This document shows, piece after piece, positions 4,873 through 64,000 of a stretch of 64,000 nucleotides of DNA. Within the stretch, counting starts at the first letter, position 1, and each line of letters opens with the position of its first letter. Under the pieces are notes generated by a model. It was not told where the DNA came from. It saw nothing but the letters and a program-made list of their open reading frames with translations, and searched no databases. This stretch comes from an uncultured delta proteobacterium (lineage in GTDB: Bacteria > Desulfobacterota > Desulfobacteria > Desulfobacterales > SG8-13). The position numbers and the translations under genes are program-made. The stretch lies in contig CAWKCK010000017.1 of NCBI GenBank assembly GCA_963848135.1, forward strand, positions 1,282,538-1,346,537. Reading direction: 5' to 3'.

Positions 4873-5011
4873 ACCCCGTTGGTAAAATAAATAGTCACCG
4901 CAAGGGCGCAAAGATCGTAGAGGTTATTCTTCTTTCTTTTCCCGCTGAGACGCCGGAAAGGAATGGGCCCTTGACGCCGCGTGGTTTTTCTCACTATTGC
5001 CTATGTTGGGC

Positions 5012-5191
5012 GGTTCAGGGTTCAACGTTCTGGGTTGAAAAGCCCTTAAACTCCTTATATATACATAGTTCTGGTTTTATGGTGTTAATAAAACCGTTTC
5101 ACTCAATGGGGTATGTTGGGTATTCCGGATCTTGAATATTAGGGTATGCCGTATCCATTGATAGTAACCTTTGAACCCTGAACCTGAAACC
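5012..5191. repeat. Inverted heptamer repeat arrays bracketing an AT-rich spacer
   Basis: ggttcag-ggttcaa-cgttctg at 5012 and the exact 14-bp inverse ttgaaccctgaacc at 5171-5184. Confidence 0.6.
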
Positions 5192-5286
5192 GATCAGTTT
5201 GGGTATTAGTACTTGCATAAAGCGTTTCGAAATTTTCAATAACGAAAACTTTCCAAGGGCACGAATAATAGGGAAAGATTGTCTCA

Positions 5287-46684: not shown

Positions 46685-47060
46685 AAGGATTAACACAACC
46701 ATCTGCAACAGCGCTCCAAGCGAATTTCTGGCACCACTGGCGCTGCGGTATACTGAGACCGTTGTCCACCTGAAACCCACAGTTCAATCGAGACAATCTC
46801 GATCGCCTCGAGAGTTTTTCCATAGCTCACAGGGAATTGTTGGCCTGGCATCGACCCAGGGCAGGATCCATGGTATTCCCCCTGCTGTTGAAGGAAGCGG
46901 TTGACGCCTTTTGCGACAACCTCGTATAGGATCCAGGATCTTTATTGGTTTCCGGTAACCTTTACGGCCCGGGATACGATGCCTTCCGTGGGGGCTTCGG
47001 GCGCACAAATCGGCCGGATGCACTCGCCAGGCTTGATGCCTATATCGAAAATAAAAAGAA
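46685..47060 (+). pseudogene. Decayed 3' half of a class I/II PLP aminotransferase
   Basis: Manual translation TTICNSAPSEFLA.LALR...DNLDRL...WHRPRAGSMVFP...FCDNLV*...G.LYGPGY..FR.GFGR; internal TAG at 46927 plus frameshifts. Confidence 0.7.
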
Positions 47061-47073
47061 CAGCGGAGGAATA

Positions 47074-47683
47074 ATGAAAATTCTGATCATCGGCGGATAT
47101 GGGACCATTGGTAAAACGGTCAGCGGGCAATTATCAAAGAAACATGACATTATCGTTGCCGGAAGGAGTTCCGGGGATGTTTCGGTGGACATAACCGATA
47201 GCCAATCGATCGAAGCCATGTTCGAATCCATCGGCAATGTTGATGCCGTTGTCTGTATTGCCGGCGAGGCCAAATGGGCCGCTTTTGAATGACCTGACCG
47301 AGGAAGATTTTTATATCGGTTTGAAAAGTAAGTTAATGGGACAGGTGAATGTGGTAAGAATTGGCCAGAAGTATCTGAATGCCGGCGGCTCGTTTACCCT
47401 TTCCACGGGAATACTGGCCGATCATCCTGTGGAATTTACCACAAGCGCTGCCATGGTTAACGGCGGTATCCACAGTTTCGTCAAAGCGGCCTGCTTAGAA
47501 TTGAAAAAAGGCATCCGAATCAATGTCGTCTCATCAGGTCTGGCGGCAGATGCTGTTGAGAAATATGAGGCGTATTTCCCTGGCCATAATCCCATACCTA
47601 TGAAAAAAGTAATAAATGGCTATGTAAAAAGTGTTGAAGGAAAAGGAACAGGCGAAATAATAAGAATGTATGACAATTGTTGA
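47074..47683 (+). CDS. Short-chain dehydrogenase; frameshift near 47287
   Basis: RBS ggagga; MKILIIGGYGTIG; SKLMGQVN, GSFTLSTG, RINVVS in next frame. Confidence 0.85.
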
Positions 47684-47808: not shown

Positions 47809-49197
47809 ATGCCGAAAAATAAAGACCTTTTGACTGAAAAGCCTTCCCGCCGTCATGGTGTTTGGCGATCCATTTTTCCGGATCCTCTCATCCCTCATTC
47901 CGACCGCGAACGGAAACGGTATCTCCTCAAAAACCTGATACTGCATTTCCGACCGTTGAGTGTCCCCGAAAAGACGCTCATGTTTTCGCTGACATGGGGG
48001 CTGGGTGGAATGGCGGCCGTTCTGATCCTTCTCCAATTCGGAACCGGGTTGTTGCTGAAATTTGCTTACGAACCCAATCCGGTAACCGCCTATTCGTCTA
48101 TTCAGGTATTACAAAATGACGTCACGTTCGGGCAGTTGATCCGTAACCTGCACCACTGGGGTGCAAACCTCTTGGTGTTGATCGTGTTCCTGCACATGTT
48201 GCGGGTGTATTTCACAGGGGCGTTTCTGCCACCGAAGCAATTTAACTGGATAATCGGTCTGGGTCTCTTTGGCCTGGTGCTGTTCGCCAATCTCACCGGT
48301 TATTTACTGCCGTACGATCAATTGGCGTTTTGGGCGGTAACCGTATCGACCGGCATGCTGGAGTACATCCCAGCCATCGGCGTCCGGCTGCAGGAAGTGA
48401 TCCGGGGCGGATCAGAAATCGGGCCGGCGTCTCTGCGGATCTTCTACGCCCTGCACACAGCCGTCGTGCCTGCGGTGTTTGTCTTTTTGATGGCTTTTCA
48501 CTTCTGGCGGATCAGAAAAGCCGGCGGCCTGGTCATCCCCCGGAAACCGGGCGAAGCCATCGAGACTGCGCCGACCCGCGTGCCGACCGTACCGAACCTT
48601 CTCTTACGTGAATCCGTTGTCGCCGTGATGCTTATTGCCGTTGTGATGCTGATGGCGGTTTTCTTCGATGCACCGCTCGGGGATCCGGCCAATCCCGGCT
48701 TGAGCCCCAATCCGACAAAAGCACCGTGGTATTTTGCCGGTCTGCAGGAGATGCTGCTGCATCTTCATCCCATGTTTTCGGTGTTTTTTATCCCCTTGCT
48801 GATTGTAACCGGTCTCTTGTGTCTGCCTTACATACGCTACCAGTCCGACACGCAGGGGATCTGGTTTGTCTCCTCCACTGGACGCCGGTTGGCCGTTTGG
48901 GCCTCAATTAGCACAGCGATCGTTACACCACTGCTGATTCTGATAGACGATCTTATCATCGAAACCGGAAACCTGCATTTCGGGCTACCGCCGCAGATCA
49001 GCAACGGGTTGATACCCGTCGCGCTTATTTCATTTGCCGTGTCGGGAGTTTATTTCATTGCGAAGCGTCGCTTCGCGACCGCGAACAACGAGGCGATTCA
49101 AACCGTGGTGATCGTGTTGCTCACCGCGTTTATCGTGCTGACCGCCACCAGCGTATGGTTCCGGGGGCAAGGAATGATTCTTGTGTGGTTGTTTTAA
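47809..49197 (+). CDS. petB: Cytochrome b of a Rieske/cyt b complex (b6-like + subunit IV fused, extra C-terminal TMs)
   Basis: Heme b His pairs H-x13-H and H-x14-H; TGYLLPYDQLAFWA; Qo motif variant KAPWYF. Confidence 0.9.
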   Translation: MPKNKDLLTEKPSRRHGVWRSIFPDPLIPHSDRERKRYLLKNLILHFRPLSVPEKTLMFSLTWGLGGMAAVLILLQFGTGLLLKFAYEPNPVTAYSSIQVLQNDVTFGQLIRNLHHWGANLLVLIVFLHMLRVYFTGAFLPPKQFNWIIGLGLFGLVLFANLTGYLLPYDQLAFWAVTVSTGMLEYIPAIGVRLQEVIRGGSEIGPASLRIFYALHTAVVPAVFVFLMAFHFWRIRKAGGLVIPRKPGEAIETAPTRVPTVPNLLLRESVVAVMLIAVVMLMAVFFDAPLGDPANPGLSPNPTKAPWYFAGLQEMLLHLHPMFSVFFIPLLIVTGLLCLPYIRYQSDTQGIWFVSSTGRRLAVWASISTAIVTPLLILIDDLIIETGNLHFGLPPQISNGLIPVALISFAVSGVYFIAKRRFATANNEAIQTVVIVLLTAFIVLTATSVWFRGQGMILVWLF

Positions 49198-49238
49198 GTT
49201 TATACCCCGAAAATCGGTAAAGAAAGATACCAAGCGAT

Positions 49239-49754
49239 ATGAAAAACAAGAATGATGCAGAGCAAACCGAACCGTCAGCTTCGAGGCGAAGCGTCTTGTC
49301 GATGATATGGGTGGGACTCGGTGCGGCGGCCCTGATTGAATTCGGTTGGCTGGTTTTCACCTTTTTTCGTCCCGCAAAGCCGCCGACCGCTGCAGGAGAC
49401 ATGAGCGCAGAGTTCGAAGCCGGCCCGGTGGGTCACTTTAAACCGGATACCGTGACAGCGTTTCCCAGGGGGCAATTTTACCTTGCCTGCCTCCAGGATG
49501 GCGGTTTTCTGGCCCTCTCCCGCCGCTGCACACATTTAGGCTGCACTGTTCCCTGGATTGAGGCGGAAAATCAGTTTATCTGTCCCTGTCATTCATCTGC
49601 CTTCGACATCAGGGGAGATGCCGTCAAACCGCCGGCGTCGCGCCCCCTGGACCTTTTCAAGGTCAGGATCGAAAACAACATTGTTAGGGTAAATACGGCC
49701 GATCGAATCAAGCGAACCGCATTCCGCGACAACCAGGCCGTTTACGCTAAATGA
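49239..49754 (+). CDS. petC: Rieske [2Fe-2S] protein
   Basis: Tat-like SRRSVL + TM; CTHLGC and CPCHSS boxes; PPASRPL. Confidence 0.93.
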   Translation: MKNKNDAEQTEPSASRRSVLSMIWVGLGAAALIEFGWLVFTFFRPAKPPTAAGDMSAEFEAGPVGHFKPDTVTAFPRGQFYLACLQDGGFLALSRRCTHLGCTVPWIEAENQFICPCHSSAFDIRGDAVKPPASRPLDLFKVRIENNIVRVNTADRIKRTAFRDNQAVYAK

Positions 49755-49791
49755 AGACAGAGAAACCCGTACCCCATTGAACACAAAAGAA

Positions 49792-52098
49792 ATGACAACC
49801 TGGAAAATAATCGGCATCGTCGCCACCACGGTGATCGTGCTCTCGATACCGCTCTACACCCTCAAAACCGCACGCGACGGCGGATCGGCTGAAAAGGGGG
49901 AAATTGCAGCCAAGGTTGAATTCGCAGGTAGTGACACATGCAAGGACTGCCACAAACCAGAGTACGACAAGTGGCTGACGTCCCACCACCAAATGGCCAT
50001 GGCTGTCGCCACCGACAAGACCGTGTTGGGCGATTTTGACGGCGCCGAATTCGAACTCTTCGGTGTAACCTCCCGTTTTTTTCGCAAGGACGGCAAATTT
50101 TTCGTCAATACGATAGGGCCGGGCGGCAAAATGGAAGACCTCGAAATTACCTATACCTTCGGCTGGTACCCGCTGCAGCAATACCTGGTGCCGTTTCCCG
50201 GCGGCCGCCTGCAATGTCTTCCGATTGCCTGGGATGTGAAAAATAAAAAATGGTATCATCTTTATCCCGACCGCCCGTTGGCCCCCGATGACTGGCTCTA
50301 TTGGACCAACAACGGCCAGAATTGGAACGGCATGTGCGCCGAATGCCACTCCACCGACCTCAAAAAAAATTATGACCCCGAAACCGACACCTATCAGACC
50401 ACCTGGTCTGAAATTAGCGTCGGGTGCGAAGCCTGCCACGGCCCGGGCTCGGCTCACGTCAAATGGGCCCAACTGCCGGATATGGCCCGCCCCGCATTGG
50501 AAAATGATGCGCTGATCGTCAAGACCAGCGGTCTCGATGCTCGCCAGCAGATCGAGTTATGTGCCCCGTGCCACTCCCGCCGCATGTCCCTGGAGGACAA
50601 CATTCATGCCCATGCCGATTTTCTGGATTACGGAATTCCGCAACTGTTAAACGAGGGCATGTATTTTGCTGACGGCCAGATTCTCGATGAGGTCTACGTC
50701 TACGGATCTTTTATGCAAAGCAAGATGTACGCACGCGGCGTCCGCTGCAGCGACTGCCACGACGTGCATAGCACAAAGCGCGTCAAGGAAGGCAATGCGC
50801 TTTGCCTGCAGTGCCACAAAGCCAGCGTCTACGATACCAAGGACCACCACTTCCACAAGCGTGAGGGCGAAAAAGGCGAACCGATCAAATCCGAAACCGG
50901 AGAGATCCTGTTCGAGGTCGGCTCGGGTGCCCTTTGCGAACAATGCCACATGCCGGGACGAAACTACATGGGCATCGATTACCGACCAGACCACAGTTTC
51001 CGGATCCCGCGCCCGGATCTCAGCGCGAGTAACGGCACACCCAATGCCTGCAACCGTTGCCACAGCGATAAAAGCAACCAGTGGTCAGTGGAATACATGA
51101 CAAAATGGTACGGTCAGAAAAAGCGCCCTCATTACGGAACGGTGTTGAATGCCGGCCGTCTGGGACAACCGACGGCCCTTACGGACCTGATCCGTCTGGC
51201 CGATGACCGGCTCTATCCCGCGATTGTCAGAGCCACGGCCCTGATGCACCTCGCAACATATGGAGGCATCGACAGCCGGCAGAGCCTCGAGCGTGCCCTG
51301 ACTGACGAAGAGGCCCTCATTCGCCAGACGGCCGTGCGTCATCTACCAGCCTCCGATCCACAGACAGATCTGGCGCGTTTCGGTCCGCTGCTTTATGACC
51401 CGGTGAAGGCCGTACGGATCGAAGCCGCGCAGAAATTGACGTCGATTCCCACCGAAAATATGACATCGGACTTGAAAACCAAATTTCAATCCGCACTGGA
51501 TGAGTACATATCGGCGATGGAGCGCACGGGCGATTTTGCGGCTTCCCGGCATAATCTCGGCAACCTGTATGCCAACCTGGGAGATTCGGAAGCGGCCATT
51601 GCCAACTACCGCAAAGCGATTGAAATCGACCGCTTGTTTTACCCGGCCAAGGTCAACCTGGCCATGCTCTATAGTCGCATGCAGGATAGCGATCGGGCCG
51701 AGACGCTATTGCGGGAGGTGGTTGGGGAATTCCCCGATCTGTATGAAATCAAATACTCCCTCGGACTGCTGCTGGCTGAAAAAAAGCAATACGAGGAAGC
51801 GACCGGGTACCTGGCGCAAGCGGCCGAAGGCCTGCCGCAGCGGGCCCGCATCCAATACAACCTCGGCCTGCTGCTTCAATTCCTTCAAAGAGATCAGGCA
51901 GCCGAGATCGCACTGCAGAAAGCCATTGACATCGAATCCGATAATTTGGACTTTCTTTATGCCCTAGCTGACTTCTATCTGAAACGAAATCGCTGGGATG
52001 ATGCCGGTCGCATCGCCGAATCGATGGTTGCCAAACATCCAAACCAGAAAATCGGGCACGACATTCTTGAATTCATTAAAGGAAAACGGCGTTCATAG
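49792..52098 (+). CDS. Membrane-anchored octaheme cytochrome c with HEAT and TPR repeats
   Basis: 8 CxxCH (CKDCH, CAECH, CEACH, CAPCH, CSDCH, CLQCH, CEQCH, CNRCH); LIRQTAV and AVRIEAA HEAT-like; NLGNLY, YSLGLLL, YNLGLLL TPR. Confidence 0.92.
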   Translation: MTTWKIIGIVATTVIVLSIPLYTLKTARDGGSAEKGEIAAKVEFAGSDTCKDCHKPEYDKWLTSHHQMAMAVATDKTVLGDFDGAEFELFGVTSRFFRKDGKFFVNTIGPGGKMEDLEITYTFGWYPLQQYLVPFPGGRLQCLPIAWDVKNKKWYHLYPDRPLAPDDWLYWTNNGQNWNGMCAECHSTDLKKNYDPETDTYQTTWSEISVGCEACHGPGSAHVKWAQLPDMARPALENDALIVKTSGLDARQQIELCAPCHSRRMSLEDNIHAHADFLDYGIPQLLNEGMYFADGQILDEVYVYGSFMQSKMYARGVRCSDCHDVHSTKRVKEGNALCLQCHKASVYDTKDHHFHKREGEKGEPIKSETGEILFEVGSGALCEQCHMPGRNYMGIDYRPDHSFRIPRPDLSASNGTPNACNRCHSDKSNQWSVEYMTKWYGQKKRPHYGTVLNAGRLGQPTALTDLIRLADDRLYPAIVRATALMHLATYGGIDSRQSLERALTDEEALIRQTAVRHLPASDPQTDLARFGPLLYDPVKAVRIEAAQKLTSIPTENMTSDLKTKFQSALDEYISAMERTGDFAASRHNLGNLYANLGDSEAAIANYRKAIEIDRLFYPAKVNLAMLYSRMQDSDRAETLLREVVGEFPDLYEIKYSLGLLLAEKKQYEEATGYLAQAAEGLPQRARIQYNLGLLLQFLQRDQAAEIALQKAIDIESDNLDFLYALADFYLKRNRWDDAGRIAESMVAKHPNQKIGHDILEFIKGKRRS

Positions 52099-54623: not shown

Positions 54624-54989
54624 TTAAGGCTTCGAGACGAGCAACCGGGTGACCTTTTTTTCAAGGTCTTCATTGTCGATCGGTTTGACGCAGTATTCAG
54701 CCGCACCCAGTTGGAAGGATTCCTGGGCGGTTTCGATGGTGGGATAACCGGTGAGAATGATGGCACGGGTGGCCGGCGCGATCCGTTTTAATTCCGCCAG
54801 CACTTCCACACCACTCATATATTTCAAGTTGAGGTCCAAAATTGCCAAATCGACAGGGTTTTCAGCGGCAAACGACAGCGCCTCTTGTTCTTCGGTAAAT
54901 GGGAAGACGGTATGTCCGGTCTCCTCCAAAATGCGACGTATCAGATTCACAGCATCCGCAACGTCGTCGAGTACGAGGATTTTCGCCAT
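54624..54989 (-). CDS. Stand-alone response regulator receiver
   Basis: MAKILVLDD, LAILD, LTGY, YCVKP; 121 aa. Confidence 0.9.
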   Translation of the reverse strand: MAKILVLDDVADAVNLIRRILEETGHTVFPFTEEQEALSFAAENPVDLAILDLNLKYMSGVEVLAELKRIAPATRAIILTGYPTIETAQESFQLGAAEYCVKPIDNEDLEKKVTRLLVSKP

Positions 54990-55000
54990 CTGTGTCCCCT

Positions 55001-55060
55001 TATAGTGGTTGTCAAAAAAACGTTCCCTTCTTCGAACGTTTTTTCCACCAACCACTTATA
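55001..55060. repeat. Imperfect palindrome with MITE-family terminus (copy 4, divergent)
   Basis: tatagtggttgtcaaaaaaacgttc-N8-gaacgttttttccaccaaccacttata; first 14 nt identical to the 16204 end. Confidence 0.55.
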
Positions 55061-55100
55061 CCACCCTTCCGTATTTCGGAATTTATTATTGAAAAGCGGT

Positions 55101-55862
55101 CTATTTTCGTGTCCGGTCACTCACCGATTTGATGCGATCGGAAAAAAGTTTTGTACAGGTCGGACAGTAGTTGTGGTGGGACTTCACATCCGTATGGCCC
55201 AATGTCCGCTCGTGAATATGTTCCAGAAATCGCGGGGTGGCATACAGTCGGCCGCAACCTTCACAGCGTTCCAGCGGGTGTCTTCCGATGATCTCGCCTC
55301 GAATGGTGATGGTTCGAACATTGTCTTTGTCTTCGATAAGAATGACGTCGGTCGGGCATATATTGGCACAGGTGCCGCAACCGATGCATTTCCCTTCCAC
55401 AGGAACGACGAAATTCTGTCCAATACGCTTCTCCATTCTGAGAGCACCGGGACCGACAATTTCCTTACACACCCGGATACAAAGCCGGCAGCGGATGCAT
55501 CCATCGGGAGGCGCGCCCGTATGAACGCCGTATTTTTCGGCCAGAGTGGTGATCGCTGCAGATTGCGGCGCCATCCGCAACAAATCCCGGAACGCACGCA
55601 TGCGCGCGTTGTCCACAACCTTGCCACCGGTCTTCACCGTCAATCCTTCGCTCACCTTGAGTATGCAGGCCAGCATGGTGATCGGTTTTCCGGAAGACCG
55701 GCCCGACACCTCCACAGCGCACAACTTGCACGCCCCCGAAGGTTTAAGCGCCGGGTGATAGCATAGTGTCGGAATGTTCACACCGTGTTGCTTGAGCACT
55801 TCAAGAACGGTTTGACCCTCCTGTGCCTCGATATTCTTCCCATCGATTTCAATGGCTACCAT
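55101..55862 (-). CDS. [2Fe-2S] + [4Fe-4S] electron-transfer protein (NuoG/HndD N-terminus-like)
   Basis: IPTLC...GACKLC...AC; CIRCRLCIRVC; CIGCGTCANICP; CEGCG...CPTC. Confidence 0.9.
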   Translation of the reverse strand: MVAIEIDGKNIEAQEGQTVLEVLKQHGVNIPTLCYHPALKPSGACKLCAVEVSGRSSGKPITMLACILKVSEGLTVKTGGKVVDNARMRAFRDLLRMAPQSAAITTLAEKYGVHTGAPPDGCIRCRLCIRVCKEIVGPGALRMEKRIGQNFVVPVEGKCIGCGTCANICPTDVILIEDKDNVRTITIRGEIIGRHPLERCEGCGRLYATPRFLEHIHERTLGHTDVKSHHNYCPTCTKLFSDRIKSVSDRTRK

Positions 55863-55946
55863 TTAACTCCTCCATGCGAGAGGGTTCGCCGTCCGCAATG
55901 ATCGAGAACTGGTCCGCTCGGCCGCAGTATAAAAATCTATCTCGGA

Positions 55947-56396
55947 TCAATCCCTACCGGCTTCATGCAGATCGTCGATGTAGTTCTTCAAGTGGCGAAG
56001 CTCATCTTCGAGGGTTCGTATGTGTTCCATCATCAGTTCCCTCGCGTTGAGAACGCCGTTTAACTGTCCGTCCTCAATCACCGGCAAATGACCGATGTTC
56101 GCCCGAAACATCATCTCCATGGCCGTTTCGCGCTCTGCATCAGGGCCGACGATAATCAGATTGTTGCTCATTGCCGCCCCCAGTGTTATCCCACCAAAGA
56201 CGGCCGGCTTCTCTTTGAGGCAAAACCGAAGGCAATCTCTGGTTGAAAATATACCCACCGGGCGATCTTCCTCTACAACGATCAACGCGCCCACCTTCTC
56301 TTTGTCCATCAGGATAATGGCATCCTCGATGGATAAATGAGCGGGTGCCGTCACAACCGATCGTGCCGTTTTTTTCAACAAGTCGCGTACCGCCAT
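55947..56396 (-). CDS. CBS-domain pair protein
   Basis: VGALIVV...VGIFSTRD; IGHLPVI...GVLNAREL; C-terminal coiled coil. Confidence 0.88.
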   Translation of the reverse strand: MAVRDLLKKTARSVVTAPAHLSIEDAIILMDKEKVGALIVVEEDRPVGIFSTRDCLRFCLKEKPAVFGGITLGAAMSNNLIIVGPDAERETAMEMMFRANIGHLPVIEDGQLNGVLNARELMMEHIRTLEDELRHLKNYIDDLHEAGRD

Positions 56397-56431
56397 GGGA
56401 TCTCTCTCCCGGCAGGGGCAAGGTCTTTTTA

Positions 56432-56641
56432 CTATTCCAGCAGCCTGAGGCAATCCTGGGGGAATCGATGGGTCCCTTTGCCCACGAGGCTGACCTCAAC
56501 CAGAGCATCGGGATCATTGATGGCGGTGTCCGGATCGGTGATCATACCGTGGAGTCCGATGTATTCATCCATATAGCTTTCCCAGCTTTCGTCGGATGAC
56601 CGGCGATAGACTTCTACTTTCTGGCCGCGACGGAATTCCAT
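56432..56641 (-). CDS. Small hypothetical protein, SH3/KOW-like
   Basis: In operon with RBS; FRRGQKVEV...MDEYIG..G.I....FP..CL. Confidence 0.7.
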   Translation of the reverse strand: MEFRRGQKVEVYRRSSDESWESYMDEYIGLHGMITDPDTAINDPDALVEVSLVGKGTHRFPQDCLRLLE

Positions 56642-56650
56642 GGTCTTCTC

Positions 56651-58822
56651 CTATTTTTGGTTCAATAGTGCCGGGGTGTCGTCGCCGCTGCGCCGGGCGG
56701 TTGACTTCCGGGCACACGCCTCGCACAGCCGCTGGTTTCCTTTAATCCGGGCCACAGTGCTGGTTCTTTTGCGAACGAAATCCAGGTAGCGAACCGGTCC
56801 TAAAACAGCGCCGCAGTCTTCACAATATAACAGCTTTTGACGATTCAATATAGTGCCGCATAGGGAAAGTATTCTCTCCCCACCCGTGTCTTCCATCCGC
56901 ATGGCGCCAGTGGGGCAGTTGGCGGCGCAAGCCCCGCACGCAATACAGCGCTCCGCCGTCATCCGGAATTCGGTTTTCACCGGATGATCGAAGTCAAAAT
57001 ATCCCATCTGCAAGGCATCTACCATCATTTTGTCCCTACAAATTTCGACACACTTTCCGCACCGCAGGCAGATATCGCACCGCAGACACCTTCGCGCCTC
57101 TTCACGAACTTCGTTTTCTGAATAGCCCAATTCCACCTGCTGGAATGTCGTCCGCCGACGATCGATGTTGAGCAAGGGCATTTCCGGACGTTTGAGGGTC
57201 ATCTTCGTACTTGCCGGTACCTCCAGCCATTTGACCCGCCCTCTTCTAACAGGTACCGGCGGCATGCTGGGCTGCGGAATGCCTCTGAAATATCGATCGA
57301 TGGATTCCGCTGCCCGTTTCCCGGCCCCGATGGCCTCGATGACGGTCGCCGGACCGGTAACGGCATCTCCACCTGCGAAAACGCCGGCCATATCGGTTTC
57401 CATGGTGGCCATATTGACATGAATGGTGTTTCGTCTCGTCCATTCAACTGTCGATAGTTCCTGCATGCATGAATTATCGACGCGCTGCCCGATCGCACAG
57501 ATGATGACGTCGGCTTCCAGCAGGAACTCGCTGCCGTCAATGGGCTTGGGAACCTTGCGGTTCCTGCCTTCCATTTGTACCATTTTGGCCCGGAGGCATT
57601 GCAATCCGTCTATAGCGCTATCGTTCCGGCCGACGCCGATGGGAACGGTTAAAAATTCGAGATGAATGCCCTCTTCCTCGGCCTGTTCGACTTCCTCCTC
57701 GTCGGCCGGCATCTCGGTGCGGGTGCGCCGATAGGCGATGGTGACTTCCTGGCAGCCCAGCCGCAGCGATGTTCGAGCGGCATCGATGGCCACATTTCCA
57801 CCGCCGATGACAACCACCCGTTTACCGGGTATCGTACGGTCCCCTAAAGCAACCCTTCGCAACAGGTCGACAGCCTCGATGACCTGCGGGCAATCCTCTT
57901 CCCCCGGTATCCCCAACTTGAACGACCGTTGGGCGCCGATGGCAAAGAAAAAGGCATCAAATCCTTCCTTCTTCAAGGCCTGGAAAGTGGCATCCTTTCC
58001 AAAACGGGTGTTGAATTGAAACGCAACACCGAGTTCCGTGAGTTTTGCAACCTCCCGATCGATGACTTCCCGCGGCAGGCGGTAACGGGGAATGCCGAGT
58101 AACAGCATACCACCGGCCACCGGTTGATGCTCGATCACCCGCACGCTGTAACCCTTCAGGACCAGGTAGTAGGCCGCACTCATTCCACCGGGACCGGCAC
58201 CGACCACACACACTTTTTTCCCCTGGTCCGGGGCCTTTTCCGGATTGTGGTAGGTCCTTTCGGACATGGACCGTTCGGCGGCAAATCCCTTGAGGAATTT
58301 AATCGATATCGGTGTATCGATCCGCGCCCGGACACACATGTACTCGCAGGGCCGCGTACAAACCAGCCCGCATACCCAGGGAAACGGGCAGTCTTTTCTG
58401 ATGACATCGATCGCCTCCCCATCCTGCCCCATCCCGATCAGAGTCAGATAGGTTGGAATGTCCAGCCCGGCCGGACAGGTCATCTGACAAGGCGCCGGGG
58501 CCAGTCGCAGGCAGTCACCGCCGGCACAGTTATGGGTCTCGATGTGACTGACGAACACTTCCCTGTGGGCATCGAGGGCGTCGCTAAGCGTCCGGGCCAC
58601 GTTCATCGAGGCCTCTCCAAACTCTTTGCTCACCAGTTGTCCGACCAGGGATTCGATCGCCGAAATATGCTCACCGCCGGCTCTTCCCAGGGCGATATCT
58701 TCCAAAAGCCGTAGTACTTCCTCCGCAATCCTGCGGCTTCTGGGATGCGACAGACCTCCGGAGCCGATGACGCTCTTCAGGTCGGCAATGCTTTTATTAA
58801 CCGGACAGACGTCTTCGGTCAT
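56651..58822 (-). CDS. NfnB/GltD-like FAD/NAD(P) oxidoreductase with extra Fe-S domains
   Basis: PCQMTCP...CGLVCTRPCEYMC; GAGPGG; GIPRYRLP; GGGNVAID; YRRT; FAGGDAV; CLRCGKCVEIC, CIACGACAANCP, CEDCG...CEAC. Confidence 0.92.
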   Translation of the reverse strand: MTEDVCPVNKSIADLKSVIGSGGLSHPRSRRIAEEVLRLLEDIALGRAGGEHISAIESLVGQLVSKEFGEASMNVARTLSDALDAHREVFVSHIETHNCAGGDCLRLAPAPCQMTCPAGLDIPTYLTLIGMGQDGEAIDVIRKDCPFPWVCGLVCTRPCEYMCVRARIDTPISIKFLKGFAAERSMSERTYHNPEKAPDQGKKVCVVGAGPGGMSAAYYLVLKGYSVRVIEHQPVAGGMLLLGIPRYRLPREVIDREVAKLTELGVAFQFNTRFGKDATFQALKKEGFDAFFFAIGAQRSFKLGIPGEEDCPQVIEAVDLLRRVALGDRTIPGKRVVVIGGGNVAIDAARTSLRLGCQEVTIAYRRTRTEMPADEEEVEQAEEEGIHLEFLTVPIGVGRNDSAIDGLQCLRAKMVQMEGRNRKVPKPIDGSEFLLEADVIICAIGQRVDNSCMQELSTVEWTRRNTIHVNMATMETDMAGVFAGGDAVTGPATVIEAIGAGKRAAESIDRYFRGIPQPSMPPVPVRRGRVKWLEVPASTKMTLKRPEMPLLNIDRRRTTFQQVELGYSENEVREEARRCLRCDICLRCGKCVEICRDKMMVDALQMGYFDFDHPVKTEFRMTAERCIACGACAANCPTGAMRMEDTGGERILSLCGTILNRQKLLYCEDCGAVLGPVRYLDFVRKRTSTVARIKGNQRLCEACARKSTARRSGDDTPALLNQK

Positions 58823-59023
58823 TTCTTCCTCATCACTCTATTGGCGGCAGCCTTTATATTTCACAAATTTGAGGCTTGCATAGCCCTTGGCCAAGTCTTC
58901 GTCCTTCTACCAGGTGCCTCAAATAATGCGGACCAATAGACACGAACGTCCTCGTTTGGCCCAGAGAGTGAAACTTTTCGGATCGCCAATGCGTCTCTAA
59001 TATGTCTTCCATTTGCGGCAATA

Positions 59024-59533
59024 TCACACCTGGTCCAGGGCCGCGACGGCCCGTGCATGACGCTCCCGTCGGATCTGGGTCGTGTCCTCAACCTTGCCGA
59101 AGCTCAGACAGTGCGTTGTGCAAACTGTGACACAGGCCGGTTTGAGACCTTGATCGATACGATCCATGCAGTAGTCGCACTTGACAGCTTTTCCGGTTTC
59201 TGAGTTCCACTGAGGCGCTCCCCAGGGACAAGCTGTAATGCAAGCCTTGCAACCAACGCAGCGTTCCGACTCTACAAATACGATCCCGTCTTTGACCCTT
59301 TTCTGCATGGCACCCGTCGGGCAGGCCGCCACGCACCAGGGATCTTCGCAATGAAAGCAGGGCATGAAAATGTATGACGCCTTGGGAAGTCCACCAACAA
59401 ACTTCGGCCCGACTGTTATAATCTGAGATATCCGGGGTCCAACCGGCAGGTTCTTGTTGCTCTTGCACTGGATGGTGCAGGTGTGGCAGCCGATGCATTT
59501 TTTTGAATCCTGAAACAGGTAGTAATTACTCAT
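59024..59533 (-). CDS. 4x[4Fe-4S] subunit (PsrB/PhsB/DmsB-like)
   Basis: CIGCHTCTIQC, CFHCEDPWCVAACP, CVGCKACITACP, CDYC...PACVTVC. Confidence 0.93.
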   Translation of the reverse strand: MSNYYLFQDSKKCIGCHTCTIQCKSNKNLPVGPRISQIITVGPKFVGGLPKASYIFMPCFHCEDPWCVAACPTGAMQKRVKDGIVFVESERCVGCKACITACPWGAPQWNSETGKAVKCDYCMDRIDQGLKPACVTVCTTHCLSFGKVEDTTQIRRERHARAVAALDQV

Positions 59534-59566
59534 TTAAATCCTCCAGAGTTGTCATTCGCTTTCGCG

Positions 59567-61651
59567 TTATGCCGGGTTGACCGTGACAAAGGTTTCATGC
59601 AGAGCAGGGCTGCCGCCGATTTTATCCATTACATTTTCCTGAAGCAGGCTATCCGACACCCCTTTGTTGAAACTGCGCGTAGCCGCTTTGGCTTGATGGC
59701 CAAAACCGTGCAGCATAAACACGGTCTCAGGGTGAATCAGGTCAGTAACGAACGCCTTGATGGTTCCCTTGCCGCAACTGGATGCCACTTCGACAACATC
59801 GCCGGTTTTGATCCCCAGTTCAGCCGCCTTTCCGGAATTGAGCCATAGGACGTTCTCCGGAACAATTTCGTTCAAATAGGGATTGTTCTGGGTGGAGACA
59901 TGAGTGTGCAGGGCGACCCTGCCGGTGACGAGACGAAATTCGTTGCCCATCGGTCTTTTGACGGGTTCGTATTCCGGAAAAGATTTGAATCCTGCTTCCT
60001 CCAGCAGGGATGACTTGAATTCAATTTTCCCGGAGGGTGATTTGAGTTTCAAACCGTCGTTGCGGTCCCAGAAGATCTGATTCTTGCCGTAGGCCACAAA
60101 TCCCTTGGCATTGAAATCTTCCGCGCTGAAACCGGTGCCCTCCAGCTGCCAGGCGACCAATTCATCCATGGTCTTGTATGGGAAGTATTTTCCGATACCG
60201 ATGCGCTCGCCAATCTGTTTCAGAATGATGGCCCCCTCCCGGGTATCGTAACGCGGTGCAACCGCCTGGCGCCGTAAAAACATCTGCGGTTTCAAGCCGT
60301 TGGCCTGCTGAATGCAGTCGGTTCGTTCGAGATAGGAAGATTCCGGCAGCACAACATCAGAGTAACTGGCAATATCGCTGTGGTTGATGTCGATGGTCAC
60401 GATCAGGTCGAGTTTGTCCAATGCCTTACGGGTCAAACCAGAATCGGGAATCGATCCCAACGGTTCGAAGCGGAAAGCAATGAGTGCCTTGATCGGATAC
60501 GGATCCTCATTGAGGATGGCATGGGGCAAAATTTGCGGTACCCCGTGACTGGGATCCGGCAGCGGCAAGTCGGGCGTACCCGCCTTGTCGAACCGCGGAA
60601 GATCAATTTTCGGAAATTTCTGTTCGACCAGTTTGCGGGCCGCCTTGCCGCCGGCCTCGCCCGGCCCTTTTTTGAAGAACAGGCCGCCCTTGTTTTCGAT
60701 ACTGCCCATCAGCGCGTTTAGCATCAGTATTGAGCGACGCTGATAAATTTCGTTGGTGTAGTGGGCGCCACGATAACCGTAGTGAAACACCACGGATGGT
60801 TTGTCCCGGCTGATTTCCCTGGCCAGGTTCACGATTTCATCCGCTGCAATACCGGTTTCCCCTGCCGCCCAATCCGGTGTGTATGGCCTGACAAAATCCT
60901 GCAATTCGGAAAGTCCGTGCACCCAACGATCGACATAAGCGGCATCGTACAGACGCTCTTTCAAAATCACGTGTATCAGGGCATAGTTCAAGGCCAGGTC
61001 GGTTCCCGGCCGTATCATCCAGTACCGGTGCGCCTTTGTCGCCGTGACAGTGACCCGGGGATCGATGTAGGTCAGCTTGGCCCCGTTTTCAATGGCACTC
61101 ATCAGGTTGTTAACCTCTTTGACCGAGACGGCCTCGAATATATTGCGACCGTAAAGGACGATGTGCTTGGTGTTTTTGTAATCGATCCCGACCTGACCAT
61201 CGGTCAGCCCGAACAGGGACCGGCAGGCGGTATTCACCGATCCCTTACACAGGGCGTCGTGAGTGAAATGGTTGGGGCTTTTTATCGCCTTCAGGAAGGT
61301 CTTGCTCACGTGAGTGGCCAGTTGCGTCCGCTCGCCTAAGACGACGCTATGACCGCCGTGCTTGTCGATAATGGCCTGCAGTTTTTCGCCAATGTAGTCA
61401 AGAGCTTCGTCCCAGCTGACCTTGCGCCACTTACCGGCGCCACGTTCGCCTTCACGGATCATCGGTGACTGAAGCCGCTCGTGATCGTAAAGCATGTTGA
61501 TGCCGGCCGCACCTCGGGGACACAAACTTCCTTCCATTCCGGGAACATGGGGATTGCCCTCGATCCAGCGGACCTGACCGTCTTGTGCCAGAACCTTGAT
61601 CGGACAGCGGATCGAACACATGAAACAAAGACTGAAAACTGAATTCTCCAT
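59567..61651 (-). CDS. Mo/W-bisPGD oxidoreductase catalytic subunit, PsrA/PhsA-like, no Tat signal
   Basis: FS0 CFMCSIRC...LCPRG; probable Cys ligand HDALC; IRPGTDLAL; SDVVLPESSYLER; HGFGH; RBS aggagg. Confidence 0.92.
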   Translation of the reverse strand: MENSVFSLCFMCSIRCPIKVLAQDGQVRWIEGNPHVPGMEGSLCPRGAAGINMLYDHERLQSPMIREGERGAGKWRKVSWDEALDYIGEKLQAIIDKHGGHSVVLGERTQLATHVSKTFLKAIKSPNHFTHDALCKGSVNTACRSLFGLTDGQVGIDYKNTKHIVLYGRNIFEAVSVKEVNNLMSAIENGAKLTYIDPRVTVTATKAHRYWMIRPGTDLALNYALIHVILKERLYDAAYVDRWVHGLSELQDFVRPYTPDWAAGETGIAADEIVNLAREISRDKPSVVFHYGYRGAHYTNEIYQRRSILMLNALMGSIENKGGLFFKKGPGEAGGKAARKLVEQKFPKIDLPRFDKAGTPDLPLPDPSHGVPQILPHAILNEDPYPIKALIAFRFEPLGSIPDSGLTRKALDKLDLIVTIDINHSDIASYSDVVLPESSYLERTDCIQQANGLKPQMFLRRQAVAPRYDTREGAIILKQIGERIGIGKYFPYKTMDELVAWQLEGTGFSAEDFNAKGFVAYGKNQIFWDRNDGLKLKSPSGKIEFKSSLLEEAGFKSFPEYEPVKRPMGNEFRLVTGRVALHTHVSTQNNPYLNEIVPENVLWLNSGKAAELGIKTGDVVEVASSCGKGTIKAFVTDLIHPETVFMLHGFGHQAKAATRSFNKGVSDSLLQENVMDKIGGSPALHETFVTVNPA

Positions 61652-61779
61652 ACTGTAAACCCTCCTAATAACCAATTGTATAAAACAACACCGTTTTTAT
61701 CTGTCCGCTCGACCGCTGAGAATTTGTTGATCAGACGGTCTACCGAAACGTACCATTTGGCTGTGACACCAAAAATGAT

Positions 61780-61795
61780 AGCAATATCCATACCA
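61780..61795 (-). promoter_or_regulatory. sigma54 promoter for the molybdoenzyme operon
   Basis: Minus strand TGGTAT-GGATA-TTGCT, ~130 nt upstream of the ATG. Confidence 0.7.
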
Positions 61796-62019
61796 TTGTA
61801 TAGCTCAAATGGAAACCGGTGAAAGCATCTGCGAACCCCAAGGAATGTCCAATAATAACAAATCGTAATAGACCCCACACGCCAGCCGAACAAAAAGGCG
61901 AAACGGCGCCTCCAGCAAAAACCGCATCAAATTTAATGCAATGCAATAATTATACTGCACCATTGTCAAGGATTTATATTTATTACATTTTTTAACTTTA
62001 ACCCGGTTTAACGAATGGT

Positions 62020-62053
62020 GCCCACCAAGATTGGGCCACCGGTAACAGTGGCC
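62020..62053. promoter_or_regulatory. Two overlapping palindromes, candidate shared enhancer
   Basis: gccca-N7-tgggc and ggccac-N8-gtggcc between the divergent sigma54 promoters. Confidence 0.4.
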
Positions 62054-62180
62054 ATTGAATCCAACCGCCTTTTCGCGATCCATTGGATCAAAGACACGCT
62101 TTTAAGTTATTTAATTGAAATCGTTACGTTTTTTTCCCTGAAGCGCCAGATATATCTAAAATCACCCTAACCGGGTCGAG

Positions 62181-62196
62181 TGGCACACGGCTTGCT
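62181..62196 (+). promoter_or_regulatory. sigma54 promoter for the tauE operon
   Basis: TGGCAC-ACGGC-TTGCT, perfect -24/-12 consensus. Confidence 0.8.
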
Positions 62197-62392
62197 TAAC
62201 ACCATTGCATCTTTTGAACATTGTGCGATCTTAGGTTGCACGGTCGCAATCGACGATACCGCGATGATAAGCAGCCAACGGACTGACAGCGGTCACCTTG
62301 TCATCGAAAGCGACCGGGAATTTTAAACACGCACAGGACAATCCTTAGCCGGAGCCTGCTGCGACGAATAAACCATATTGAGGAGGTCGTGT

Positions 62393-63553
62393 ATGAAGAA
62401 GAGTCTGAAAATCGCGAGTTTATTGCTCCTGGTGGTCATGGTGGCAGTACCGTTGCTGCTGACGGGCACCGCGGTGGCAGAAACACTGGAAGAAGCAATT
62501 GCCAAGACCCCGGCGGGCACCGAGGCCGGACAGATCGATCCTGAAGCGAAAACCGGTTTTCTCGGTATCCCTGGAGCACCGGACCCCAGCTTGGTCGTCG
62601 GGTTTTTTTGGGCCGTATGGGTCGGTTGGATCTTTTCCACGGTCGGTGCATTCGGCGGTATCATGGCAGGTGTCGGCCACATCACGGTTTTCGGCCTGGC
62701 CGATTATGGCAAAACTTTCAAAAAGACATCCCCCGCTCTGAACAAACTCATAACTGACAGTATCCGGGTCTCCAACCAGTGGCTGGTCGGACTGAGCGCG
62801 GCGGTATCCAGTTTCAACTATTACAAAATGGGTCGCCTGGTGCTGCCTCTCGGCATTGCATTGGCCATCGGTTCCGTGGCCGGCAGCATATTGATACCGA
62901 TCATCACGGCCGGTAAAATATCTCTTAAGGCTTACCTGGGTTATTTTGGCCTGTGCGTGTTTGTTATCGGCGCGTTTCTCTTCTATGAAACCACTCCCAA
63001 GGGTCAGGCCGGTAAAAAAGAAGCCAAAGCGGCAGCCAAAGCTTTTGAGGACGCGAACATAAAGAAATCCTCCTCCCTCGCCGAAGAAGATCGGGGGGTC
63101 AGGGTTCACCAATGGGGTATCGGCCGCGTTACTTTTTCCTTTTATGGCGTGGAATTCAGCTTTCGGCCCATCATCCCGATCATTGGTGGTTTTTTTATTG
63201 CCGCCCTGGCATCCTTTCTGGGCATCGGTGGCGGCTTCCTGTTCGTCCCCTTCCTGACCAGTATTGCCGGCCTGCCCATGTTCCTCGTCGCCGGCACCTC
63301 GGCCCTGACGGTTCTGGTTGGGATGATCATCAGCGTCTTCACCTATATGCTGGTTAAAGGAGTCCCTGTATACTGGTCCCTCATCGGCATTGAGCTGATC
63401 GGTATCTTCGTCGGTTCCATGATCGGCCCGCGAACCTCCAAGTACATTCCGGACATCTGGCTCAAACGCTTGTTCGTCGTTCTGGCGCTCTATGTCGGAC
63501 TGCGGTATACCACAAAGGGGTTTCTGGGCTACAGCATCGTTCCACCGTTCTGA
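62393..63553 (+). CDS. tauE: TauE/SafE-family sulfite/sulfur-compound transporter
   Basis: STVGAFGGIM, LGIGGGFLFVPFL, VAGTSAL, GSMIGP..S; many TMs; RBS aggagg. Confidence 0.9.
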   Translation: MKKSLKIASLLLLVVMVAVPLLLTGTAVAETLEEAIAKTPAGTEAGQIDPEAKTGFLGIPGAPDPSLVVGFFWAVWVGWIFSTVGAFGGIMAGVGHITVFGLADYGKTFKKTSPALNKLITDSIRVSNQWLVGLSAAVSSFNYYKMGRLVLPLGIALAIGSVAGSILIPIITAGKISLKAYLGYFGLCVFVIGAFLFYETTPKGQAGKKEAKAAAKAFEDANIKKSSSLAEEDRGVRVHQWGIGRVTFSFYGVEFSFRPIIPIIGGFFIAALASFLGIGGGFLFVPFLTSIAGLPMFLVAGTSALTVLVGMIISVFTYMLVKGVPVYWSLIGIELIGIFVGSMIGPRTSKYIPDIWLKRLFVVLALYVGLRYTTKGFLGYSIVPPF

Positions 63554-63614
63554 TGCGCAACCGGCCACCTTGTGCCCGGATGCCCAATAGATGCATCGGA
63601 CAAACGCGATAGGA

Positions 63615-63644
63615 CCTGCTCCCGGATCACGAATCGGGAGCAGG
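63615..63644 (+). terminator. Hairpin after tauE
   Basis: cctgctcccg ... cgggagcagg 10-bp stem; no U-tract. Confidence 0.4.
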
Positions 63645-63701
63645 ACAACAAATCCAGACCGGCGGGATAAATAAAATAATTTGCCACCCAGAGGGCTTGC
63701 T

Positions 63702-64000
63702 ATGGCTATGATGAATACATTATATTTACACATTGATCGTTTTCTGATCGGATTCTATCGGATCAGCGAAGTTCCCATTTTTGGTTACCTTTTTGGATCG
63801 GCCATTCTGGGTCTCCTGTGTGTTGTGTTGGGCCAGTTCACCCTATCTCTCGCCTACAGGGCCAACCGGAAAAATCTCAACAGCAACAACAAAGAGATGG
63901 TCCGGATGCACAACCTTTCGATTTACGCGTTGCTGGCAAAAAATAAAAAGGCCTATAAGAGCTGCAACAAAGAGGCCAACGACGCATTCGGAAAATATTT
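63702..64000 (+). CDS. Membrane protein, runs off window end
   Basis: Open frame MAMMNTLYLHIDRFLIGFYRISEVPIFGYLFG...KAYKSCNKEANDAFGKY, co-oriented after tauE. Confidence 0.75.
   Translation, partial: MAMMNTLYLHIDRFLIGFYRISEVPIFGYLFGSAILGLLCVVLGQFTLSLAYRANRKNLNSNNKEMVRMHNLSIYALLAKNKKAYKSCNKEANDAFGKY

Follow-up and report, generated by a model that had tools for sequence, protein, structure and literature searches.

A conserved operon joining a leaderless PsrA/PhsA-like molybdoenzyme and an NfnB/GltD-like flavoprotein in an uncultured delta proteobacterium, a candidate cytoplasmic thiosulfate reductase

Gene organization of the locus

We analysed a stretch of 64,000 nt (here called the window) from contig CAWKCK010000017.1 of an uncultured delta proteobacterium (GCA_963848135.1), whose genome is 6.03 Mb and 98.65% complete. 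The locus at positions 54,624-64,000 contains an operon in which a molybdoenzyme of the PsrA/PhsA kind, without a twin-arginine (Tat) leader, stands together with an iron-sulfur subunit and an FAD/NADP(H) flavoprotein. On balance, sequence comparison suggests that this operon probably encodes a soluble, cytoplasmic, NADPH-linked reductase of an inorganic sulfur compound, with thiosulfate as the most likely substrate and polysulfide as the second. The subunit contacts, the NADPH donor, the substrate and the direction of the reaction are what we infer from the genes. The gene calls were based on the list of open reading frames (ORFs) with their translations and on Pfam and NCBIfam profile scans.

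On the minus strand, MoA (59567-61651, 694 aa; PF04879, PF00384, PF01568) is the PsrA/PhsA-like catalytic subunit of the molybdenum/tungsten bis-pyranopterin guanine dinucleotide (Mo/W-bisPGD) type. It is followed by FeSB (59024-59533, 169 aa; Fer4_11), a PsrB/DmsB-like subunit for four [4Fe-4S] clusters which also has no leader, and by Flav (56651-58822, 723 aa; Fer4_20, Pyr_redox_2, Fer4_7), the FAD/NADP(H) iron-sulfur flavoprotein. Further downstream are small69 (56432-56641, 69 aa), an SH3-like protein without Pfam family, a stand-alone CBS-pair protein (55947-56396, 149 aa counted from an internal ATG, with two stretches of PF00571), Fer2Fe4 (55101-55862, 253 aa; Fer2_4, Fer4_9), which carries a [2Fe-2S] domain, a 2x[4Fe-4S] domain and a CxxC...CxxC tail, and a single-domain response-regulator receiver (54624-54992; PF00072). 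On the plus strand there are a membrane transporter of the TauE/SafE family (TSUP), whose N-terminus has a signal-like segment (62393-63553; PF01925), and its membrane partner (63681-64000; no Pfam family), which is cut by the window end and has 202 aa in the genome. A sigma-54-type -24/-12 element, TGGTATGGATATTGC, occupies 61781-61795 of the minus strand, some 130 nt ahead of MoA, and the sigma-54 promoter consensus TGGCACACGGCTTGC lies on the plus strand at 62181-62195, about 200 nt before tauE.

All genes named in the initial annotation of this DNA were found where it had placed them by ORFs, Pfam and NCBIfam, and, as it had also claimed, Pfam scans of the operon and its flanks gave no NrfD/PsrC membrane anchor. 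Because the arrangement is conserved in many genomes, it is far beyond chance.

The molybdoenzyme and its missing leader

The best NCBIfam model for MoA was PhsA (NF012032) with 607.7 bits, the match beginning at model position 38, while the next models, Fdh-alpha and DmsA, reached 251 and 218 bits. The closest solved relative was PsrA of Thermus thermophilus (PDB 2vpw, E 1.3e-113). An identity as formate dehydrogenase or nitrate reductase was rejected, because the scores of such profiles and structural relatives were far lower. It is in agreement with the initial annotation, which had assigned a PsrA/PhsA-type catalytic subunit and had raised the formate/nitrate clades as the alternative placement; on the profile scores that placement does not apply to MoA.

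The FS0 motif CxxCxxxC of MoA begins at residue 9, and one Cys aligns to Cys173 of PsrA in 2vpw, which we take to be the Mo ligand. With this ligand position retained, MoA would be catalytically active. FeSB keeps all 16 of its 16 Cys, arranged in four motifs, invariant in 30 sequences, and it matched the NCBIfam model DMSO_dmsB with 154.9 bits, below the cut-off.

A ribosome binding site-like AGGAGG is found 8 nt ahead of the ATG at 61651, and the MoA N-terminus reads MENSVFSLCFMC. The longest possible frame, from a TTG at 61675, gains 8 residues only. There are thus 8 residues before the Cys motif of FS0 and no room for a signal peptide. The alignment with 2vpw says the same: residue 3 of MoA corresponds to chain residue 38, which is past the Tat leader.

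MoA is the sole protein of its kind in its own genome, where the next-best match was 28% identical. Eight NrfD matches were found in the genome, all at least 760 kb away from the operon or on other contigs, and several of them lie within a few kb of a more distant molybdoenzyme match. Since MoA has no Tat leader and no NrfD/PsrC stands with it, the enzyme should face the cytoplasm and should not receive quinol electrons through PsrC, although an NrfD protein acting in trans from elsewhere in the genome would be conceivable. The cytoplasmic location put forward in the initial annotation is therefore upheld by the leaderless MoA, the leaderless FeSB and the absence of an anchor gene from the locus.

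Leaderless relatives in the phylum

In a sample of 401 genomes of the phylum, 145 had a match to MoA at E <= 1e-80; two candidates were scored per genome, so some relatives may have been missed. At E <= 1e-100, MoA matched 2440 protein clusters. Forty regions from the phylum sample were fetched for inspection of leaders and partners. All 25 fetched relatives with at least 40% identity to MoA were without a Tat leader when inspected by eye; they start a few residues ahead of the Cys motif, and the longer frames show no hydrophobic leader. All 12 fetched relatives at 34-37% identity (L118-L129) bear leaders of the RRxFL type, and in nine of these 12 a protein with 4 to 9 membrane segments predicted by hydropathy stands beside the B subunit.

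A quick maximum-likelihood tree was built from 50 chosen rows (the window, 13 of the 80 related loci described below and 36 ORFs from the 40 fetched regions) and rooted on the Tat rows. It split 39 leaderless rows from 11 Tat rows at an SH-like approximate likelihood-ratio test (SH-aLRT) value of 100. The leaderless rows form two subclades, one of 20 rows including the window and one of 19, and the types of electron partner are mixed over both.

Conservation of the operon

A search for related loci over contigs of one genome per species gave 313 related stretches, of which the best 80, with 66-85% identity, were kept. Nearly all of these 80 belong to Desulfobacterales (Desulfobacula, Desulfotignum, Desulfosarcina or similar), and many of them end at contig edges. 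When the window proteins were searched by tblastn, matches were found in the 80 loci for FeSB (76), Flav (74), Fer2Fe4 (66), small69 (60), the TauE-family protein (49), the CBS protein (31), the receiver (29, mostly unrelated receivers at about 30% identity) and the membrane partner of TauE (21, adjoining tauE). MoA, FeSB, Flav, small69 and Fer2Fe4 were all colinear at a coverage of at least 93% in 42 of the 80. The tie between MoA and an NfnB/GltD-like flavoprotein, proposed in the initial annotation, is thus borne out by conserved gene order. In the phylum sample, coordinates compared by hand placed a Flav-like match on the same contig within about 5 kb for 32 of the 40 MoA matches with at least 59% identity.

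The flavoprotein

Flav has an NfnL/GltD-like core, followed by a C-terminal 2x[4Fe-4S] domain and a tail with four Cys. It passes the model NF009410 (522 bits versus a cut-off of 516). Its closest solved chains are 9bov_A (1.8e-120), 9n5u_A and 8oh5_C, which are the NfnL-like modules of NfnA/StnC in NfnABC of the Bfu type, with E values of 1.8e-120 to 5e-103; NfnB and GltD rank behind these chains (3e-83 for Thermotoga NfnB, 4ylf_B).

In an alignment of 26 sequences the motif Y364-R365-R366 is invariant. In NfnB this YRR motif binds the 2'-phosphate, and it is characteristic of DsrL-2, the form specific for NADP(H) (PMC7596348). Also invariant are the Cys aligned to Cys47, 51, 86, 90, 96 and 100 of NfnB, and the four Cys of the tail after the ferredoxin domain (C667, C670, C700, C703). 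The counterpart of NfnB Cys39/Cys42 sits after the FAD domain (RRC579LRC582), as it does in NfnA. Lys178, invariant as well, aligns to Glu117 of Thermotoga maritima NfnB, a position which holds the non-Cys ligand of the proximal cluster (PMC7596348). For NfnA in NfnABC, the FAD is described as the origin of a single electron path and not as the bifurcating site (PMC12018979).

Scans with Pfam and NCBIfam found no FAD small subunit of the NfnS/NfnA type encoded in the operon. Among the operon proteins there was likewise no match to Complex1_51K, NADH_4Fe-4S or NuoE-type models in these scans, that is, no HydB/NuoF- or HydC/NuoE-like subunit. The initial annotation had called the system possibly bifurcating, and this part does not stand well: Flav has the Lys of the NfnABC entry module in place of the Glu of NfnSL, and neither an NfnA/NfnS partner nor a HydBC core accompanies it. 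Because Flav resembles the non-bifurcating NADPH entry module of NfnABC, bifurcation at its FAD is unlikely. An identity of Flav as DsrL was also tried and rejected, since it has no dsr context, dsrAB being on another contig (C3).

Accessory proteins

The small69 protein is 64-87% identical among 24 relatives, and its family has 982 database clusters, all hypothetical or unnamed and without Pfam family. The AlphaFold (AF2) model, with a predicted local distance difference test (pLDDT) value of 83.8, shows a small beta-barrel plus a single short helix. Foldseek gave no match against the PDB at E <= 0.001; the best weak rows are all barrels of the SH3/KOW type, including PetP of cytochrome b6f (TM 0.71), the variable chain of ferredoxin-thioredoxin reductase (FTR) and PsaE. 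For small69 the protein Atlas gives, independently, the families of PetP and of the FTR variable chain at 0.91. Since PetP, FTR variable chain and PsaE are accessory subunits on iron-sulfur proteins, the modelled fold suggests that small69 is likely an accessory subunit too.

Fer2Fe4 is similar to HoxU and to the N-terminal part of NuoG, matching both NCBIfam models, and its C-terminal part (ferredoxin plus tail) shares 31% identity with Flav 583-708. A side branch facing ferredoxin is a conceivable part for it to play. Conservation of the CBS protein, for which the initial annotation had proposed adenylate sensing as a possible role, and of the receiver is narrower than that of the core genes, and the receiver is kept directly downstream, at 53-68% identity, only in the closest relatives L003, L057, L063, L070 and L071.

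Transporter and sigma-54 regulation

The TauE protein matches PF01925 with 80.2 bits (gathering cut-off 32.6, E 2.4e-22), and a GAGGAGG lies ahead of its ATG at 62393. A tauE gene of at least 56% identity was inside the fetched flank in 32 of the 80 loci, usually divergent upstream as in the window, or a few kb downstream in the Desulfotignum loci. A single strand carries tauE, its partner, MoA, FeSB and Flav in L103, and L134 likewise has everything from MoA to tauE and partner on one strand. The membrane partner was also matched in L099, L103, L105, L132, L134 and L136.

The element at 62181-62195 is the sole exact TGGCAC-N5-TTGC in the window, and the MoA-side element has two mismatches to it. 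Within 400 nt upstream of MoA, the pattern TGG[CT]A[CTG]-N5-TTGC occurs in 33 of the 77 loci with enough upstream DNA. The resulting density is 1.07 per kb; elsewhere in these loci, both strands counted, it is 0.019 per kb. Beyond the window end, genes for a histidine kinase and an NtrC-type sigma-54 activator come after the 202-aa partner, and such a set is also found upstream of tauE-MoA in L105. Because the kinase/activator set neighbours tauE here and tauE-MoA in L105, one regulon is suggested, in which kinase and activator would act on the MoA and tauE promoters. The dedicated TauE transporter of the initial annotation is thereby strengthened by recurrent adjacency and by paired sigma-54 promoters. 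The family name of PF01925 is no evidence on the cargo of this TauE.

Just past the window end (L097 2778-3368) we also noticed an ORF of 196 aa that has hydrophobic stretches and matches no Pfam family. It stands between the TauE partner and the histidine kinase and overlaps the start of the kinase ORF; possible readings are part of a membrane sensor or a small membrane protein in its own right.

Proposed function and energetics

In the mechanism we propose, NADPH would be oxidised at the FAD of Flav, and the electrons would pass over the two [4Fe-4S] clusters of the Flav N-domain and then the C-terminal 2x[4Fe-4S] domain. From there they would go on through the four clusters of FeSB and FS0 of MoA to the Cys-ligated Mo-bisPGD site, which would cleave thiosulfate to sulfide and sulfite. 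The chain would have about nine [4Fe-4S] clusters in total (2 + 2 in Flav, 4 in FeSB and FS0 in MoA). The sulfite would be consumed by DsrAB, the dissimilatory sulfite reductase of the genome, in which contig C3 carries a dsrA match of 611 bits with an adjoining dsrB-like match. A cytoplasmic site is sensible in a Dsr organism, because sulfite would be released where it is consumed. The small69 protein and Fer2Fe4 would be further subunits, with Fer2Fe4 possibly a second electron entry or exit. The TauE-type transporter and its membrane partner would move the anionic substrate or product, and both transcription units would be turned on via sigma-54 by the kinase and NtrC-type activator past tauE. 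Reduction or disproportionation of thiosulfate, a main intermediate when sulfur is cycled in sediments, is carried out by many sulfate reducers.

Several points weigh against this NADPH-fed thiosulfate reductase, and they concern energetics, substrate and pairing of the subunits. As for energetics, the couple thiosulfate/(HS- + HSO3-) has about -402 mV and NADP+/NADPH has -320 mV. Electron transfer from NADPH to thiosulfate is uphill by about 16 kJ/mol at standard potentials and needs removal of sulfite. By a Nernst calculation, with sulfite kept about micromolar through DsrAB and thiosulfate and sulfide millimolar, the couple shifts by about +180 mV. With sulfite kept low by Dsr, therefore, no coupling device would be required. 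Polysulfide, at about -260 mV, would be reducible by NADPH outright.

The uphill standard potential is one reason to consider that the same complex bifurcates or confurcates, either splitting NADPH electrons between the thiosulfate site and a higher-potential acceptor via Fer2Fe4, or using ferredoxin and NADPH jointly. The NfnL/GltD-like fold of Flav and the extra [2Fe-2S] subunit without obvious role would fit such coupling, and so would related loci with a NuoF-like FMN module fused to the flavoprotein (L098, L100, L101) or with a HydB/NuoF-like gene (L115). In the window operon, however, the invariant Lys178 matches the single electron path of NfnA and not the Glu of NfnSL; an NfnS/NfnA-type FAD subunit and HydB/NuoF-like or HydC/NuoE-like subunits are missing from it; and coupling becomes needless when Dsr keeps sulfite low. 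We give this explanation a small chance.

As for the substrate of the proposed thiosulfate reductase, it is not readable from sequence in the Psr/Phs/Sre group, and MoA falls below the PhsA equivalog cut-off of NF012032 (607.7 versus 694 bits). Among published findings on similar proteins, two favour thiosulfate. The PhsAB-like pair DITHS69_2028/2027 of Dissulfuribacter thermophilus was among the most increased proteins under thiosulfate disproportionation, together with a TauE/SafE protein and a transmembrane protein that co-occurs with TauE/SafE; the authors suggest electrons from sulfite oxidation and call for functional study (PMC13490349). In Desulfovibrio alaskensis G20, mutants of PhsAB (Dde_1076:1075) had their lowest fitness on thiosulfate, yet the effects were mild, -0.79 and -0.30 (PMC4215793). 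By contrast, the PhsA proteins of Desulfolithobacter were low in abundance under thiosulfate disproportionation, and according to a passage of the same paper no functional analysis of PhsAB exists (PMC9751629). These PhsAB of Dissulfuribacter, Desulfolithobacter and G20 are likened to MoA by description and lie outside the 50-row tree.

Accordingly, the operon might instead encode an NADPH-linked reductase of polysulfide or sulfane sulfur, tetrathionate, or a selenium or arsenic oxyanion, with thiosulfate at most a side activity. That the closest solved relative is a polysulfide reductase, that MoA stays under the PhsA cut-off and that the step from NADPH to polysulfide is downhill would all agree with it. 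Specificity in the Psr/Phs group is also described as not inferable from sequence, Shewanella PsrABC reducing both thiosulfate and sulfur (PMC13047784). But the experimental hints for leaderless PhsAB in relatives, as reported in the passages cited above, point to thiosulfate, the TauE family is tied by name, and by name only, to sulfite-type anions, and general Pfam/profile scans found no pointer to selenium or arsenic in the neighbourhood. We regard this other substrate range as unlikely, though it keeps an appreciable chance.

As for pairing, the remaining eight of the 40 MoA matches in the phylum sample comprise four at contig edges and four with another neighbour or none. One genome (G264) has in L136 tauE, its partner, Flav, small69 and Fer2Fe4 together without MoA/FeSB, and its sole MoA relative (L117, 44% identity) is about 2 Mb away, adjoining an aldehyde dehydrogenase gene. 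Because of this separation and of the four sampled genomes with other or no partner, the pairing of MoA and Flav is not obligatory. The predicted complex of Flav and FeSB was graded as weak support: its score was 0.54 and the best of three controls had 0.01. Of 157 solved complexes, 116 attain the mark for such predictions, as do 2 of 215 mismatched pairs; in the score range up to 0.60 there are only 18 of the 157, along with both mismatches that attain it. The prediction runs agree in at least 0% of contacts, with partner pLDDT of at least 79.

It is conceivable, then, that Flav, small69, Fer2Fe4 and TauE form a unit of their own, for example an NADPH reductase of the transported compound, and that PhsAB is fed elsewhere. 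L136 would be an instance of such a unit, and PhsAB-like pairs do have differing neighbours, which are nuo genes in L105-L107 and a lipoamide-dehydrogenase-like gene in L114; in L113, L130, L131 and L137 no such neighbour was seen. Yet the order MoA-FeSB-Flav-small69 is tight and recurs across genera, also with the MoA subclade of 43-44% identity in L134 and L135, and the Flav set encodes no other catalytic subunit. The C-terminus of Flav is a ferredoxin-like docking domain as in DsrL, and the Flav-FeSB interface score, though weak, is well above the controls. A separate Flav unit is therefore quite improbable.

Finally, the complex could work in the oxidative direction, as a cytoplasmic sulfite or thiosulfate dehydrogenase which passes electrons to NADP+, like SoeABC or DsrL-1. 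SoeABC faces the cytoplasm and its SoeAB are leaderless, as MoA is. DsrL-type flavoproteins are bidirectional in vitro (PMC7596348), and reduction of NADP+ by the electrons of sulfite-to-sulfate oxidation is feasible, though no sulfite-oxidising relative was found near MoA. The host genes are those of reductive sulfur metabolism, the YRR motif goes with the reductive DsrL-2 (PMC7596348), and MoA groups with Psr/Phs reductases by profile and solved relatives, a comparison that SoeA stands outside. We hold this direction to be very improbable.

Comparison with known systems

Compared with PsrABC/PhsABC (such as Salmonella PhsABC, NF012032), MoA has the same FS0 motif and the Cys aligned to the Mo ligand, and FeSB has the 16 Cys for four [4Fe-4S] clusters. 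The window system differs in having neither Tat leader nor anchor, and MoA belongs to a clade separate from the Tat forms of the phylum. The initial annotation had started from the premise that Psr/Phs enzymes are periplasmic. That premise overlooks published work on PhsAB without an anchor, as it occurs in sulfate reducers and disproportionators. The D. thermophilus pair has no PhsC and no Tat leader and is predicted to be cytoplasmic (PMC13490349), and Desulfobulbaceae encode PhsAB without an NrfD-like subunit (PMC13047784). PhsAB of Desulfurella is Tat-bearing and periplasmic (PMC6378623).

With the anchor-less PhsAB, our operon shares the two subunits without PhsC, the proposed conversion of thiosulfate to sulfide and sulfite and, in D. 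thermophilus, the TauE pair. It differs in that the relevant passages on those systems name no electron donor, flavoprotein, small subunit or sigma-54/TauE unit.

DsrL, which is the NAD(P)H port docking on DsrAB (PMC7596348), is like Flav in that it is an NfnB/GltD-type iron-sulfur flavoprotein, bears a C-terminal 2x[4Fe-4S] domain on a linker and has, in the DsrL-2 form, the YRR motif (PMC7596348). The two were compared by domains and motifs, without a tree. In DsrL an N-terminal 2x[4Fe-4S] part precedes the FAD domain with its embedded NAD(P) domain, and a linker of about 100 aa leads to the ferredoxin domain. By Pfam and alignment the order in Flav looks alike overall, but two ligands of the N-domain cluster come, as in NfnA, from a segment behind the FAD domain. 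Flav has in addition an N-terminal domain of about 100 aa, the extra Cys4 tail and a PhsAB-like partner. In 42 of the 80 loci its gene lies between the PhsB-like and small69 genes, not with DsrAB.

Unlike NfnSL, Flav has Lys178 at the position of the Glu ligand and no partner subunit with a second FAD. It is closer to NfnA/StnC, with the NfnL-like module, the permuted Cys segment and the 2x[4Fe-4S] domain in the same order and Lys at the proximal-cluster position. NfnA, in contrast, has its own N-terminal domain and a NuoG/Fdh-like domain in one chain and feeds a bifurcating NfnBC (FMN) core. Set against NfnABC as a whole, the window has the 2Fe-2S domain as a separate protein, the pterin subunit as a separate PhsA-like enzyme, and no NfnBC-like genes.

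AorABC and the type N tungsten aldehyde oxidoreductases (WorSL with an FAD subunit) are also soluble and combine pterin, four-cluster polyferredoxin and FAD/NAD(P) subunits, three-subunit NAD(P)-linked forms being among them (PMC12318220). They differ in the pterin family, which is of the aldehyde oxidoreductase (AOR) type and not Mo-bisPGD, and in substrate and direction, and the FAD subunits are likened by role. In WorABCSL, a C-terminal zinc finger and helix of WorA plugs into the polyferredoxin (PMC12318220). By analogy, the Cys4 ends of Flav and Fer2Fe4 could play a WorA-like docking part.

A full-text search, which covered few subscription journals and had supplements outside it, found no paper linking PhsAB to an NfnB/GltD/DsrL-like flavoprotein, and the catalogue of Bfu enzymes (PMC9304861) has no word starting with "molybd". 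In the literature searched, again with supplements outside, the flavoprotein partner, the small subunit and the link with TauE and sigma-54 are not named and would be new, whereas anchor-less PhsAB is known. The operon is thus more specific than the literature's PhsAB without C, as the catalytic pair comes with sigma-54 control, a TauE pair, a small subunit and an NADPH module of the DsrL/NfnA kind. It offers a candidate answer to the electron source of anchor-less PhsAB for a large group of marine Desulfobacterales, namely an NADPH-fed cytoplasmic enzyme that would hand sulfite to Dsr, with a candidate transporter and a candidate regulator.

Partner modules in other lineages

One catalytic module appears combined with diverse electron modules, which bears on the energy conserved or spent in thiosulfate metabolism. 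Flavoproteins of 650-770 aa like Flav stand beside PhsAB in L103, L104, L108, L110, L134 and L135. In L098, L099, L100, L101, L102, L111 and L112, the flavoprotein adjoining PhsAB is 994-1231 aa long. Three of the long forms were scanned and have a NuoF-like N-terminal part, with Complex1_51K, SLBB and NADH_4Fe-4S in L098 and SLBB in L100 and L101. Residues 39-103 of Flav align to the end of this NuoF-like part, as if the window form were shortened. L098 also has, downstream of its NuoF-fused flavoprotein and with a CAP-domain gene between, a second flavoprotein of 900 aa (2498-5200, minus strand) with Fer4_20, Pyr_redox_2 and a CCG domain as in HdrD, which hints at a link to a disulfide-type acceptor.

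In L115, where MoA is 74% identical, a 593-aa NuoF/HydB-like protein takes the place of Flav. In L105 (G383), L106 (G257) and L107 (G337), genes of the nuoA, B, C, D, H, I, J, K and L type come directly after MoA-FeSB, and NuoE, NuoF and NuoG are absent from these runs. The three loci come from small genomes of the phylum (Thermodesulfobacteria-like). Here PhsAB may stand in for the NADH module in a pump resembling complex I, and the layout would fit thiosulfate reduction from menaquinol driven by proton motive force. Two published items fit the same layout: a table in PMC9751629 lists PhsA-1 (GF1_30490), PhsB-1 (GF1_30500) and NuoB (GF1_30520) with neighbouring locus tags, and a figure legend in PMC7117923 puts NuoABCDHIJKLM and PhsAB side by side among expressed genes. 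L114 has a lipoamide-dehydrogenase-like gene beside MoA-FeSB, and in the fetched regions of L113, L116, L130, L131, L133 and L137 no partner module was recognisable.

We tentatively speculate, with more doubt than confidence, that PhsAB without leader serves Desulfobacterota as a cytoplasmic plug-in for thiosulfate reduction, and that its electron supply has repeatedly been swapped, with the TauE pair as carrier and a sigma-54 two-component switch. Three versions would exist: the NADPH flavoprotein with the SH3-like and 2Fe-2S subunits, as in the window; the NuoF-fused flavoprotein, which could perform Nfn-like bifurcation from NADPH to NAD+ and thiosulfate; and the NuoEFG-less complex I, in which proton motive force could drive menaquinol electrons uphill to thiosulfate. 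If this is true, the three modules would be missing electron-input routes for thiosulfate respiration and disproportionation, and the TauE pair would be the matching thiosulfate/sulfite carrier.

Other features near the operon

Two ORFs in the locus were dismissed: one of 92 aa at 61805-62083, which had no match in the 80 related loci, and one of 437 aa on the minus strand at 62420-63733, which overlaps tauE on the opposite strand. Terminator-like sites (6 versus 9.2 expected) and sigma-70 promoter-like sites (5 versus 5.9) were at chance level, and a single transcript is neither backed nor opposed by them.

About 2.5 kb from the operon end, on the plus strand at 47809-52098, are consecutive genes for a cytochrome b, a Rieske protein and a multihaem cytochrome of 773 aa that has TPR and HEAT repeats, a set that makes up a bc-type complex with an unusual cytochrome partner. 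Ahead of it, at 46945-47683 on the same strand, two overlapping ORFs of 115 and 148 aa together cover the N-terminal part and the middle of a short-chain dehydrogenase/epimerase fold, and they may represent a frameshifted gene.

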